Shown piece by piece: positions 587 through 4,772 of a stretch of 4,772 bases of DNA. The stretch is from a virus (Duplodnaviria; Heunggongvirae; Uroviricota; Caudoviricetes). The notes beneath the pieces were generated by a model. It was given only the letters and a program-made list of their open reading frames with translations, searched no databases and was not told the DNA's origin. Where the stretch lies: IMG/VR virus record IMGVR_UViG_2645727810_000002. One strand, given 5' to 3'. The number at the start of each line of letters is the position of its first letter. Within the stretch, counting starts at the first letter, position 1. The translations under genes were made by a program, and so were the position numbers.

Positions 587-1069
587 TTATTTGATAAGAA
601 GTGAAGGTTTCCCAACTTTGAGTTGAGCACCGGGGATATTTATTCCTGCTTTTAGTTGGTGTTTGATTGCCAGTTTGTCGGCTTTAATTGTCGTTTCAAA
701 CTCAACGTATTCAGGAGGAAGGGCGCTTGAGTCGATTATTTCTACAATTTCTGACGGTTTGCGGATTGTTACCTGGTGAATACCTGCTCGAATCTTTTTC
801 TTGCCAACCATTTCAAGCGATGCCGCTATATACGCCATAATGCTGTCAATCTTATTTTGAATTACTGCGGCTCGCTCATTCAGCGACCTTGCCTCTTCCT
901 TGAGGCGTTCAGCATAACCAGATTCATTTTTAATAATGGCAAGAAGTTGCTCTATTTTATCGGCAAATTCTCCTTCCATGCCTTCTATTGTGTCAGCAAT
1001 CATCTCTGGTTCTAAATCTGAATCCATCAATTTTGCGTATTCATTGGCAATTTCATACAGTTTGCTCAC
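587..1069 (-). CDS. Gp157-family-like coiled-coil phage protein (recombination-associated; possible host-nuclease inhibitor)
   Basis: ORF-track 587..1075 uses a TTG at 1075 that abuts the SD GGAGG (1080..1076); GTG at 1069..1067 has correct 6-nt spacing, so start set to 1069. The 5' end overlaps the recT 3' end by 17 nt. Helical, charged N-terminal half and beta-rich C-terminal half, ~160 aa, adjacent to recT, as typical for Siphovirus Gp157 (PF05565) or Mu Gam-like proteins. Family call is from memory. Confidence 0.6.
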   Translation of the reverse strand: MSKLYEIANEYAKLMDSDLEPEMIADTIEGMEGEFADKIEQLLAIIKNESGYAERLKEEARSLNERAAVIQNKIDSIMAYIAASLEMVGKKKIRAGIHQVTIRKPSEIVEIIDSSALPPEYVEFETTIKADKLAIKHQLKAGINIPGAQLKVGKPSLLIK

Positions 1070-1964
1070 TGGCAACCTCCAGTTTCGCTTTGCATTCTAT
1101 GTAAATGGCTTGTACGTTCTGCTGCAATTTCATTCCAGATGTCAGGCGATATGCTTCTGCAAAATATCGCTTCAAATCATCCATGTTTTCTGCATGAGCC
1201 ATTTCATCGCAAAGAAGTTGTGCTTTATCCATTATTTCCTGCTGGCGTTTCCGTTCATCTTCGCGGATATCTTCCTCTGATTTGTGCGGCATAACTGGTT
1301 CAGTCCACACACCTTCTTCTTCGTTTAGTACGTGAATAGCACTATCAAGACGTGATGCCTTAGGCCAATACTTGCTTGCACGCTTTACGACCGTCTTTCG
1401 CGCCATCTCATTCCAGTGATTTACCCATGGTCCTTTATCGCTGAATGCTGCCTTGCTTGTTTTCCTTACAGCCTCAATTTCAGCCAGACTCATCTCTTCC
1501 GTTAGATAATCACCTGCTGGCGTCTTAACTGTGCAGTAAACACCAACAATATCACCACGATCACCGAAGGCGTTGTATTTATGGGTTGGTGCTTTATCAA
1601 GCCCGTTTGACTCATAGGTATCGTTAGCTTGAACAAGTTTTGCCTGACCCCATGAGATAACACCAGACTCCATTGCAATATGGAGCAATCCCATATAACT
1701 GATATCAAGGCACACCATGCCGTCGCGCGGAACCAGATAAGCCAGTTTGCTAGCCGGGTTTAAGGTGATACCGATCGCCGCAACATTGATGATGGCGTTC
1801 TGTGCGCTGGTTGGATTTGCCAGTGCTGTTTTAGCCAGGTAATCATTTTTCTGGAAATACTGAATTGCAAACTGGCTTTCCTTAGCCCATGTCACCGTCT
1901 GTTCAGTCAATGCTCCGCAGAATAACTGCTCTTGCTGTTTAACGAATTCAACGATATTGCTCAT
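1053..1964 (-). CDS. recT: RecT-family single-strand annealing protein (phage recombinase)
   Basis: 303-aa ORF. Segment GPWVNHWNEMARKTVVKRASKYWPK closely matches the conserved RecT motif (E. coli Rac RecT ...GPWVTHWEEMAKKTAIRRLFKYLP...). SD GGAG ~7 nt upstream of ATG 1964; start overlaps the upstream stop (ATGA). Confidence 0.9.
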   Translation of the reverse strand: MSNIVEFVKQQEQLFCGALTEQTVTWAKESQFAIQYFQKNDYLAKTALANPTSAQNAIINVAAIGITLNPASKLAYLVPRDGMVCLDISYMGLLHIAMESGVISWGQAKLVQANDTYESNGLDKAPTHKYNAFGDRGDIVGVYCTVKTPAGDYLTEEMSLAEIEAVRKTSKAAFSDKGPWVNHWNEMARKTVVKRASKYWPKASRLDSAIHVLNEEEGVWTEPVMPHKSEEDIREDERKRQQEIMDKAQLLCDEMAHAENMDDLKRYFAEAYRLTSGMKLQQNVQAIYIECKAKLEVASEQTV

Positions 1965-2743: not shown

Positions 2744-2899
2744 TCAACACCCCACATGTTTGTTACCCAGGATAGTTTTTTCGTACCGTTGACAAGATTC
2801 AGACCACATAAACTGACTTCCATGCGGGCGAGTTTCGATATCTGTTATCTCTCCCGGCCGAACAAAACTGGTATTCGACTTCGTTATTTTTACTTTCAT
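2744..2899 (-). CDS. Hypothetical small protein (51 aa), translationally coupled to the upstream 83-aa gene
   Basis: ATG at 2899..2897 overlaps the upstream stop (TAATG); stop TGA at 2746..2744. Hand translation MKVKITKSNTSFVRPGEITDIETRPHGSQFMWSESCQRYEKTILGNKHVGC. Not in the ORF track (short). An antisense plus-strand ORF (2756..2959) covers the same DNA and is judged the shadow. Confidence 0.35.
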   Translation of the reverse strand: MKVKITKSNTSFVRPGEITDIETRPHGSQFMWSESCQRYEKTILGNKHVGC

Positions 2900-3150
2900 T
2901 ACTCATCCCCAAGAGCTTTGCTGATTGCTGACTGTGCTTTCGATACTTCATCAGGATAATGGTCATTCCAGCTTTGCTTGTATGCCTTGTTTAGCATCGC
3001 TTGCAGAGCTTCAAGCAAATCAGGAGCTGCCTCCATCAATCTCAAATCACCACGATGTATGGTTGTATCGTCAAACGTGACATAAACACCATCATCGTTG
3101 AATCCAGTGCCAACAACACTCCACGGCCTTTTCATTCTTTCTACGGTCAT
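2899..3150 (-). CDS. Hypothetical protein (83 aa), first gene of the leftward early operon (occupies the position of lambda N but is not N-like)
   Basis: ORF-track 2899..3156 begins at a GTG that is part of the SD (GAGG 3159..3156); ATG at 3150..3148 has 5-nt spacing. Protein MTVERMKRPWSVVGTGFNDDGVYVTFDD... is net acidic with no arginine-rich motif. No family recognised. Confidence 0.6.
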   Translation of the reverse strand: MTVERMKRPWSVVGTGFNDDGVYVTFDDTTIHRGDLRLMEAAPDLLEALQAMLNKAYKQSWNDHYPDEVSKAQSAISKALGDE

Positions 3151-3322
3151 ATTCACCTCTGTTGTTTATGCCAAAAATATCTTTTTCTATATCAAAAAGC
3201 TGCTTTGCTTTTTGTGACTAAAAGCAAAAAAGCCTTCTCGCTAATGAGCAGCATTGCCGTTCATCCTGAACCCGCCGCGCTCCCGACGCATGGTTTAATG
3301 TCGCGCCGTTCGACATGGCTTA

Positions 3323-3351
3323 ACTATATTCAAAGCTATTATTGCTGTAAA
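3323..3351 (-). promoter_or_regulatory. Candidate pL-like early-left promoter
   Basis: Minus strand: -35 TTTACA (3351..3346), 17-nt spacer, -10 TATAGT (3328..3323); predicted start near 3316, giving a ~165-nt leader before the ATG at 3150. Overlaps operator-like motifs. Confidence 0.45.
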
Positions 3352-3364
3352 TAGCTATAGTTAT
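3326..3364. promoter_or_regulatory. Candidate OL operator sites (two copies/variants of the ATAGCT-NN-AGCTAT motif)
   Basis: 3351-3364 ATAGCTATAGTTAT (one mismatch to the palindrome consensus) and 3326-3339, which reads ATAGCTTTGAATAT on the minus strand (good left half, degenerate right half); centres ~25 bp apart; they overlap the candidate pL -35 and -10. Additional AT-rich palindromes nearby (AGTTAT-AAA-ATAACT at 3359-3373; AATAAC-N7-GTTATT at 3367-3385). Confidence 0.4.
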
Positions 3365-3443
3365 AAAATAACTCCTTTGGTTATTTAGTCATTGATATCT
3401 AATGTAATTTATTTTTCTTGTATGTGAGATTTGGTGTTTTTTG

Positions 3444-3476
3444 GGCAATAAAAAACCCGCAAAAAGCGGGTTTGTT
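3444..3476 (-). terminator. Rho-independent terminator immediately downstream of cI (hairpin is bidirectional, strongest for the minus-strand transcript)
   Basis: Stem AACCCGC / GCGGGTT with AAAAA loop (3454-3472). On the minus strand the hairpin is followed by TTTTTTATT; on the plus strand by TTTGTTG. Lies ~15 nt after the cI stop. Confidence 0.75.
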
Positions 3477-3490
3477 GTGGTGTGATGAGG

Positions 3491-4222
3491 TTAGTAGTCA
3501 ACTACAGACCACCAGAAGATTCTTCCGATGATCTCGATATCGCTTAGATTCTTTTCTTCTTGTGGGTATTCCAGTGAGTTAAAGCTTCTAATGCTTACCT
3601 TGTCAGGCCCTGATCGAAAGAGAATCTTAATGCGTTTCCAACCGTTCTCGTTAATGGCGTAAATCTTTCCGTCAACTATTTTCTTATCGTTGGTGTTAAC
3701 AGCAACTGTTGTTCCATCAGGAATGTTTGGCTCCATGCTGTTGCCACGAGCCGGAAAACAAACAACCCCGCTTCCATCACTGTTCGCGCCAACTCTGCGA
3801 AGGGTTGATTTGGAGAAGCGCAACATAAAGCCGTTGTGATCTTCATCAATCACCCGACCATCCCCGCATGCAAACTCAATATCTTTAAGGTAAGGAACTT
3901 CAACTTCATCACCTCTTAAAGGCGTTCCTCCATCCCATGGGTCCAAATATCCCCACGTGCTTTCATGAGGAATAGAAGATTTTGGATTATAAGGTTCAAC
4001 TCCCTCATCACGCATTGGCCCAGTCCCATCGGAAAGCCATTCCGTACGAACTCCAAGCACTTTTGATATTTCAAAAAGTTTGCGCGTATTGCGTGTTTTT
4101 CCAGACGTAAGTTTCCAGACGCTTGGCTGAGACATGCCAACAGCATTGCCAAGAGAAGCCTGAGTAAACCCAGCCTGATCCATCGCGTATGTAAGCCTTT
4201 GAGAAAAAGTATCTAGTTTCAT
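3491..4222 (-). CDS. cI: CI-like phage repressor (N-terminal HTH DNA-binding domain plus C-terminal LexA/S24-type autopeptidase domain)
   Basis: 243-aa ORF. HTH-like segment QASLGNAVGMSQPSVWKL; S24 signature G-N-S-M (putative nucleophile Ser162) and W-K-R-I-K ~35 residues later (putative general base Lys196), matching the LexA/CI/UmuD Ser-Lys dyad spacing. Divergent from a cro-like gene across an operator-rich intergenic region. Confidence 0.9.
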   Translation of the reverse strand: MKLDTFSQRLTYAMDQAGFTQASLGNAVGMSQPSVWKLTSGKTRNTRKLFEISKVLGVRTEWLSDGTGPMRDEGVEPYNPKSSIPHESTWGYLDPWDGGTPLRGDEVEVPYLKDIEFACGDGRVIDEDHNGFMLRFSKSTLRRVGANSDGSGVVCFPARGNSMEPNIPDGTTVAVNTNDKKIVDGKIYAINENGWKRIKILFRSGPDKVSIRSFNSLEYPQEEKNLSDIEIIGRIFWWSVVDY

Positions 4223-4228
4223 TCGTAC

Positions 4229-4257
4229 AACCTATAGCTACAGCTATTATTAGTCAA
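4229..4257 (-). promoter_or_regulatory. Candidate pRM-like promoter giving a leaderless cI transcript
   Basis: Minus strand: -35 TTGACT (4257..4252), 17-nt spacer, -10 TAGGTT (4234..4229); the cI ATG (4222) lies ~6-7 nt downstream of the -10, and there is no SD. Same arrangement as lambda pRM/cI. Confidence 0.45.
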
Positions 4258-4296
4258 ATACCTAAAGCTATTTACTTTCTGAATAGCTTTGGCTAT
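4234..4296. promoter_or_regulatory. Tripartite operator (OR-like): three 14-bp inverted repeats, consensus ATAGCT-NN-AGCTAT
   Basis: Site at 4234-4247 ATAGCTACAGCTAT (perfect 6+2+6 inverted repeat), 4258-4271 ATACCTAAAGCTAT (1 mismatch), 4283-4296 ATAGCTTTGGCTAT (1 mismatch); centres 24 and 25 bp apart, between divergent cI and cro. Confidence 0.6.
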
Positions 4297-4299
4297 TAT
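4271..4299 (+). promoter_or_regulatory. Candidate pR-like promoter for cro
   Basis: -35 TTTACT (4271-4276), 17-nt spacer, -10 TATTAT (4294-4299). The third operator overlaps the -10/spacer and the second overlaps the -35. The cro SD AGGAG (4318-4322) is followed by ATG 4331. Confidence 0.5.
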
Positions 4300-4330
4300 T
4301 CTGATTGTGAATTCAGCAGGAGTTATTTTT

Positions 4331-4561
4331 ATGGTCAACGAGGCTATTAAAGCGGCTATTGACTCAGTAGGAAGTCAGCAAAAGTTAGCTAATGCCTGCG
4401 GTGTTAAGCAGCCGTCTGTATGGGCTTGGTTGCATGGGAAGAAAAGGGTATCCGCTGAAAATGCCAAGCGCATTGAAATGGCTACCAATGGAAGCGTCCC
4501 TGCATACCTGATTCGCCCTGATTTATCCGCTTTGTTCCCCAATCCGAACAAAGCAGCTTAA
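4331..4561 (+). CDS. cro: Cro-like / YdaS-family HTH transcriptional regulator (76 aa)
   Basis: ORF-track 4289..4561 starts at a TTG inside the operator region; ATG 4331 with SD AGGAG 8 nt upstream is the likely start. HTH-like QQKLANACGVKQPSVWAWLHGKKRVSAENAKRIE; small size; divergent from cI. Confidence 0.8.
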   Translation: MVNEAIKAAIDSVGSQQKLANACGVKQPSVWAWLHGKKRVSAENAKRIEMATNGSVPAYLIRPDLSALFPNPNKAA

Positions 4562-4574
4562 TAAAGCAAATTTT

Positions 4575-4626
4575 TATACCGAACGGCCCGGTATACGGTC
4601 GGGTGCCCGGCGTGGTCATGGATGAC
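4575..4626 (+). promoter_or_regulatory. Stem-loop and palindrome cluster just downstream of cro (candidate nutR/tR1-like or protein-binding element)
   Basis: TATACCG-AACGGCC-CGGTATA (7-bp stem, 4575-4595) followed by a GC-rich stretch and the palindrome GTCAT-GG-ATGAC (4615-4626). No adjacent T-tract, so not a canonical intrinsic terminator. Confidence 0.35.
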
Positions 4627-4680
4627 TGTCAATGGTGCACAATAAAAAACCAAATTATTTACCTATGGAAATAGTAAGAA

Positions 4681-4772
4681 ATGGAACAAACAAGTTACAG
4701 CAAACTATCACAGCGTGACGTTGATCGCGCAGAAACAGATTTACTCATCAACCTGTCAACGCTTACCCAGCG
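4681..4772 (+). CDS. Hypothetical protein, N-terminal fragment (possible CII-like regulator; continues past the right edge)
   Basis: ATG 4681 with weak SD-like AAGAA upstream; frame open to the window end (MEQTSYSKLSQRDVDRAETDLLINLSTLTQ...). Follows cro as cII does in lambda. Identity not established. Confidence 0.35.
   Translation, partial: MEQTSYSKLSQRDVDRAETDLLINLSTLTQ

Follow-up and report, generated by a model that had tools for sequence, protein, structure and literature searches.

A phi80 cI-type S24 repressor with a predicted Cys-Gly scissile bond in the immunity region of a mosaic lambdoid phage

The gene at 3491..4222 (minus strand) of the window, meaning the whole 4,772-nt stretch of viral DNA analysed here (IMG/VR record IMGVR_UViG_2645727810_000002), very probably encodes a lysogeny-maintenance (CI-type) repressor with a phi80-cI-type S24 domain that is SOS-cleavable at Cys119-Gly120 by Ser162 and Lys199. 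The repressor is a new member of the known phi80 cI clade of S24 repressors.

Domain architecture and predicted fold

The repressor ORF, taken from the ORF list, specifies 243 amino acids and closes with a stop codon at 3491-3493. Pfam assigns two domains to it, HTH_3 at residues 13-63, with a score right at the cut-off (23.1 bits), and Peptidase_S24 (PF00717) at residues 117-235 (E = 3.7e-15; 56.1 bits vs a cut-off of 23.3). The presence of both in one ORF bears out the earlier reading of the gene as that of a CI-type repressor with an S24 self-cleavage domain. Its annotation as a cI-type immunity repressor gene also draws on a match to PHROG 4, 'transcriptional repressor' (E = 3e-50), and on homology to phi80 cI. 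An NCBIfam scan of the repressor returned nothing above a family cut-off.

The N-terminal HTH DNA-binding domain (residues 1-68; 4019..4222, minus strand) is like that of the 434 repressor, residues 2-63 of which match it in a phmmer search against the PDB (E = 2.7e-8). The AF2 model folds this domain into five helices with a pLDDT of ~95. The C-terminal S24 self-cleavage and oligomerisation domain, including the cleavage-site region (residues 105-243; 3494..3910, minus strand), is defined by Pfam, by identity to phi80 cI and by the AF2 model, which was computed from an alignment that left out the phi80 and POCJ13 rows and has an overall pLDDT of 90.4. Comparison of the model with the C-terminal domains of LexA, lambda CI and UmuD' gives TM-scores, normalised to the target, of 0.70-0.79. 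Among the Foldseek matches are LexA, UmuD' and lambda CI structures, with 2ho0 and 2hnf (cleavage-site fragments) and 8gmu (bound to RecA) among the latter; the non-catalytic C-terminal domain of 186 CI is a further match. In a PDB profile search with the full-length family alignment A2 the HTH dominated, and the five alignments listed did not extend over the S24 domain.

An identical protein (ATN92760, 100%) is encoded by Escherichia phage APC_JM3.2. Of 5426 complete E. coli genomes, 31 contain the repressor gene at an identity of at least 95%. Among the matches listed (eight records), the protein is labelled either 'XRE family transcriptional regulator' or 'helix-turn-helix transcriptional regulator'.

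Predicted scissile bond and catalytic residues

Cys119-Gly120 (3863..3868, minus strand) is the predicted scissile bond, and Ser162 of the GNSM motif (3737..3739, minus strand) the predicted nucleophile; both assignments are well supported by sequence comparison. The bond was assigned by alignment with LexA, lambda CI and UmuD and by the phi80 cI motif, and the serine by alignments A1, A2 and A3. Direct reading places the Cys119 codon at 3866-3868 and that of Gly120 at 3863-3865. The pair lies in the context IEFACGDGRV and Ser162 in RGNSMEP, while two lysines considered below, Lys196 and Lys199, lie in NGWKRIKILF. Residue counts and codons confirm the numbering of Cys119, Gly120, Ser162 and Lys196 in the preliminary description. 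The spacing of about 42 residues given there also holds, at 42 residues from Gly120 to Ser162 and 43 from Cys119.

Alignment A1 was built with MAFFT from six sequences, including LexA and UmuD of E. coli K-12, lambda CI and phi80 cI, taken from annotated records. The larger alignment comprises 152 sequences, with 146 family representatives that correspond to clusters at 50% identity. In A1, Cys119 shares its column with LexA A84, the lambda CI Ala and UmuD C24. The Gly120 column is invariant and contains LexA G85, UmuD G25 and lambda CI G112 (mature-protein numbering; G113 when counted from the gene), and Ser162 is aligned with LexA S119, UmuD S60 and the lambda CI Ser. The columns of Cys119, Gly120 and Ser162 are the same in the 152-sequence alignment. 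The residues of LexA, lambda CI and UmuD in these columns are their experimentally determined scissile bonds and nucleophiles. In this check against the three proteins the scissile bond falls on Cys119-Gly120, not elsewhere, and the nucleophile on Ser162.

Gly120, Gly160, Ser162 and Met163 are invariant in the 70-sequence family alignment, so Cys119-Gly120 is no chance motif. Across the 146 representatives, the P1 column (119) contains Ala in 103, Gly in 16 and Cys in 10, these three residues accounting for 129/146, and the P1' column (120) contains Gly in 130/146. The preliminary description had called Cys119-Gly120 the only X-Gly motif in the expected position. This is too strict, since Asp121-Gly122 and Asn130-Gly131 are also close by, but conservation and alignment do pick out Cys119-Gly120.

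In the AF2 model a short strand ends at residue 119, and the lowest-confidence segment, residues 121-130, follows directly past the scissile bond. A PNAS commentary describes LexA, lambda CI and UmuD as flexible around the cleavage site, and the low-confidence loop is consistent with this. Local HMM alignments to LexA, UmuD and lambda CI stop short of the cleavage-site region, and the assignment of the scissile bond therefore rests on the global MAFFT alignments, on conservation and on identity to phi80 cI.

Self-cleavage might in principle occur at another bond of the same loop, for example Asp121-Gly122. Gly122 is likewise strongly conserved, in 137/146 representatives, the loop past residue 120 is flexible in the model, and the HMM alignments to solved homologues leave the cleavage segment uncovered. 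However, the column of position 121 is highly variable among the 146 representatives (N, S, D, A, H, T and others), too variable for a P1 residue, whereas position 119 is limited to Ala, Gly or Cys, which argues against an Asp121-Gly122 bond. Both global alignments, moreover, match Gly120 with the glycine at P1' in LexA, lambda CI and UmuD. Cleavage at such an alternative bond is extremely improbable, and Cys119-Gly120 is the bond considered in what follows.

The predicted general base is almost certainly Lys199 (3626..3628, minus strand), not Lys196 (3635-3637, minus strand). The assignment draws on the 152-sequence alignment, a family HMM and residue spacing. In the 152-sequence alignment, Lys199 falls in one column with LexA K156, UmuD K97 and the lambda CI Lys; of the 146 representatives, 134 have Lys there and 10 have Arg. 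The column of Lys196 contains Leu in 104 and Lys in 10. A family-only profile HMM of the C-terminal domain, built without LexA, CI and UmuD, sets its conserved Lys (dgllrvKiLyr) on Lys199, on LexA K156, on UmuD K97 and on the lambda CI Lys. From Ser162 to Lys199 the spacing is 37 residues, equal to that in LexA and UmuD, and this places Lys199 in the range of ~37-43 residues past the Ser that characterises the general base in the S24 family.

The preliminary description had proposed a Ser162/Lys196 dyad with Lys196 as the general base. By eye, WKRIK does look like VKRLK of LexA, and the six-sequence alignment A1 set Lys196 on LexA K156, UmuD K97 and the lambda CI Lys. That placement, however, costs a 4-residue gap directly past the motif, and it is at odds with the 152-sequence alignment, the family-only HMM and the Ser-to-Lys spacing, each of which leads to Lys199. 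A Ser162/Lys196 dyad is thus very unlikely, the earlier choice being off by three residues. The correction to Lys199 matters for anyone designing non-inducible mutants, for which Cys119/Gly120, Ser162 and Lys199 are now the defined residues.

The phi80 cI clade and other S24 proteins

The closest characterised relative of the repressor is phi80 cI (JX871397, PHI80_47), at ~51% identity over the full length (51.6% by tblastn against phage records; BLASTP E = 1e-84). Its cleavage motif, LKDIEFACGDGRV, is identical to that of the repressor; the shared motif spans 13 residues and contains FACGDG, and over the longer segment VEVP(Y/F)LKDIEFACGDGRV the two proteins are one residue apart. The C-terminal domains are 68% identical and the catalytic spacings are the same, 43 residues from Cys to Ser and 37 from Ser to Lys. 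The phi80 gene also occupies the same place in its immunity region, where three operators flank it to either side.

The N-terminal DNA-binding domains, in contrast, are only 22% identical, and the OR and OL regions of phi80 are without the AATAGCTnnnGCTATT motif, their operators being unrelated to those found here. Accordingly, phi80 and this phage should be heteroimmune. The repressor has the full-length homology, the FACGDG motif and the immunity-region layout of the phi80 cI-like clade, without the immunity specificity of phi80. It is the same cleavage and oligomerisation module as that of phi80 cI, combined with a different immunity specificity. Cleavage of phi80 cI was reportedly mapped to its Cys-Gly bond by Eguchi et al. 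in 1988; a full-text literature search found no statement that the phi80 cI bond is Cys-Gly.

To judge from the relatives' sequences, Cys-Gly is the norm in the phi80-cI-like clade, where Cys interchanges with Ala. The 120 closest database proteins (at least 59% identity) comprise 109 with Cys-Gly, 10 with Ala-Gly and one with Cys-Ser, and the distance from P1 to Ser is always 43 residues. A ratio of 109 Cys to 10 Ala at a fixed distance from the Ser is the pattern expected of an interchangeable P1 residue. In the wider PrtR-like family Cys at P1 is a minority state, at ~7%. The Cys-Gly pair had been presented in the preliminary description as unusual, standing in place of the usual Ala-Gly, but it proves to be a family trait of phi80-cI-like repressors. 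Because Cys-Gly is a hallmark of the phi80 cI family, the repressor is a routine family member and no new kind of switch.

The repressor has the features of the S24 family, namely PF00717 with the corresponding fold, the Ser of GNSM, the general-base Lys and, by global alignment only, the (Ala/Cys)-Gly strand-loop. LexA and lambda CI have the same S24 fold as the repressor, their Ser/Lys dyad occupies the same columns, and their cleavage-site strand-loop likewise contains the invariant Gly at P1'; the order of DNA-binding domain, linker and S24 domain is also common to all three. They differ in having Ala at P1, where the repressor has Cys, in their shorter spacing from P1 to Ser (35 in LexA and 38 in lambda CI, against 43) and in an overall identity to the repressor of only 15-24%. 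The N-terminal domain of LexA is a winged helix. The loop from the scissile bond to the Ser is 5-8 residues longer in the repressor than in LexA, UmuD or lambda CI.

UmuD resembles the repressor in having Cys-Gly at the scissile position, with C24-G25 on Cys119-Gly120, and in a Ser-to-Lys spacing of 37. It differs in that it lacks a DNA-binding domain and does not act as a repressor. The 'UmuD-like' label of the preliminary description fits the P1 residue only: in A1 the repressor is 16% identical to UmuD and 15% identical to LexA, and is thus no nearer to the former. The Cys common to the two proteins is a coincidence at P1, not a sign of shared ancestry of a 'UmuD type'. As a family assignment, UmuD-like was rejected on the N-terminal HTH, the low identity and the gene neighbours, which are cro, cII and recombination genes, without umuC. 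UmuD is described as cleaving intermolecularly within its dimer (PNAS commentary).

The PrtR-type repressors of Pseudomonas pyocins and prophages belong to the same wider family, at 35-40% identity to the repressor, and the annotation prtR or 'HTH-type transcriptional regulator PrtR' is carried by several relatives. They share the motifs ELAAGxG ... GNSM ... LRVKxLY. The wider family differs from the clade in being mostly Ala-Gly, as reflected in the 103 representatives with Ala at P1.

Some family members depart from the consensus at the active site. Several close relatives (P0106, P0125, P0128, P0136, P0141 and P0152) are without the scissile Gly or the Ser, for example with FSCSDG, LIGC-N or LVPN-D at the cleavage site, or with NNDSL or SDNAM substituted for GNSM. 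Such relatives may be non-cleavable repressor variants. In a sub-group of the wider family, 16 representatives (e.g. P0160, P0184 and P0199), the predicted scissile position is occupied by Gly-Gly and not by Ala-Gly or Cys-Gly.

The immunity region and the proposed switch

The layout of the locus is canonical for an immunity repressor, with three operators towards cro, two or three on the left, overlapping promoters and a terminator. A repeat search identified the right operator region (4233..4297) between the repressor and cro-like genes, where three 16-bp pseudo-palindromes (4233-4248, 4257-4272 and 4282-4297) match AATAGCTnnnGCTATT and are spaced 24-25 bp apart. The same motif recurs in the left operator region (3325..3390), where 3325-3340 and 3350-3365 match it and a third, weaker copy lies near 3375-3390, as found by repeat search and pattern count. 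The pattern AATAGCTNNNGCTATT has 11 matches where 1.84 would be expected, a count not reached in any of 200 shuffles. A promoter scan predicted a PR-like promoter at 4271-4299 (plus strand), overlapping the right operators, and a PL-like promoter at 3351-3323 (minus strand), overlapping the left ones. Just downstream of the repressor gene, a terminator scan found an intrinsic terminator (3453..3473, minus strand) that consists of an 8-bp stem, in which 5 pairs are G-C, and a run of T behind it. An Rfam scan gave only sub-threshold chance matches, on the terminator.

The divergent cro-like gene (4331..4561, plus strand) encodes 76 amino acids from an ATG at 4331, the ORF lister having placed its start at a TTG at 4289, and matches the Pfam families YdaS_toxin and P22_Cro. 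Its counterpart in APC_JM3.2 is a CDS of equal length (231 nt). In the APC_JM3.2 record this gene is labelled 'antirepressor', which looks like a misnomer.

The source of the window is a mosaic lambdoid/P22-like E. coli phage or prophage. Over positions 3300-4772 its identity is 99.0% with Wanchaivirus PDP110P2 and 98.4% with APC_JM3.2, a Lederbergvirus. The left 2.7 kb encodes RecT, a Gp157/Gam-like protein and small genes, and is ~98% identical to phages Gally, mEpX1 and HK140. Its recombination module (587-1964) contains RecT (1053-1964, minus strand) and a Siphovirus Gp157/Mu Gam-like protein (587-1075, minus strand), which overlaps RecT by 23 nt. APC_JM3.2 combines a near-identical immunity region with a different left arm. 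The immunity module is itself mosaic, with a phi80-type C-terminal domain, a 434-like HTH, a cro of the YdaS/P22-Cro type and an HK022-like putR and cII start; from 4572 onward, over putR and the cII start, identity to O276/HK022 is 92.6%.

Put antiterminator RNAs flank the immunity region. The HK022-type putR RNA (4584-4640, plus strand) has one difference from that of phage O276/HK022 over the annotated 57 nt, and the HK022-type putL RNA (3246-3308, minus strand) is near-identical to O276 putL; Rfam gave no match for either. Downstream of putL the first ORF (2899-3156, minus strand) encodes 85 amino acids that match PHROG 1273 (unknown function), with no Pfam match. No N-like gene was found downstream of the PL-like promoter. 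Given the put RNAs and the lack of an N-like gene, antitermination in this phage is probably RNA-mediated and N-independent. The neighbourhood of phi80 cI differs in this respect, having N and nut sites where the present phage has HK022-type put RNAs and no N gene.

In the proposed switch, the 434-like HTH domain would bind the AATAGCTnnnGCTATT operators to the left and right of the gene and shut the PL- and PR-like promoters, which we infer to be the ones repressed. Upon DNA damage, a RecA-ssDNA filament would favour the state with the flexible cleavage-site loop seated in the active site, where Ser162, activated by Lys199, would attack the Cys119-Gly120 bond. Cleavage would part the DNA-binding domain from the domain for dimerisation and cooperativity, and the prophage would be induced. 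Both cleavage itself and its dependence on RecA are proposed here from homology. RecA-mediated self-cleavage is described for the P22, phi80 and lambda repressors (PNAS commentary, citing Eguchi, Ogawa & Ogawa 1988). As phi80 cI, the closest characterised relative, is reported to be cleaved with RecA, SOS/RecA-dependent cleavage is the expected mechanism.

Alternatively, the repressor might escape cleavage in vivo, with induction solely via an antirepressor (of the Gifsy, 186 or P22 Ant type) and the S24 domain serving for oligomerisation only. The near-identical APC_JM3.2 is classified as a Lederbergvirus (P22-like), and phages of this group often carry an Ant antirepressor. The representatives that have lost the Ser or Gly imply that non-cleaving members exist, and a non-catalytic domain, that of 186 CI, is among the fold matches. 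The repressor nevertheless keeps the family-conserved catalytic and scissile residues Gly120, Gly160, Ser162, Met163 and Lys199, and its closest characterised homologue is RecA-cleavable. An antirepressor, moreover, would not preclude cleavage, and P22 c2 is subject to both. Induction by an antirepressor without any cleavage has only a very small chance of being correct, and an SOS-cleavable repressor is the preferred reading.

Within the clade, the P1 Cys and the longer loop are fixed features, and they might be functional, making the clade a differently set SOS sensor and not a neutral Ala-to-Cys variant; this possibility is an unlikely one. If it is true, the P1 Cys and longer loop could tune the induction threshold, or could make cleavage sensitive to thiol redox state or small ligands. 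Lysogens of phi80/Lula are reported to be unusually UV-sensitive, with ready phage release, and the authors of that study speculate that the phi80/Lula repressor is cleaved more readily than that of lambda (phi80/Lula paper). The swap of Cys and Ala at P1 within one clade is of modest interest for the range of substrates that S24 self-cleavage tolerates. The value of the present analysis lies mainly in annotation, through which an 'XRE family transcriptional regulator' becomes a phi80-cI-type, probably SOS-cleavable prophage repressor.
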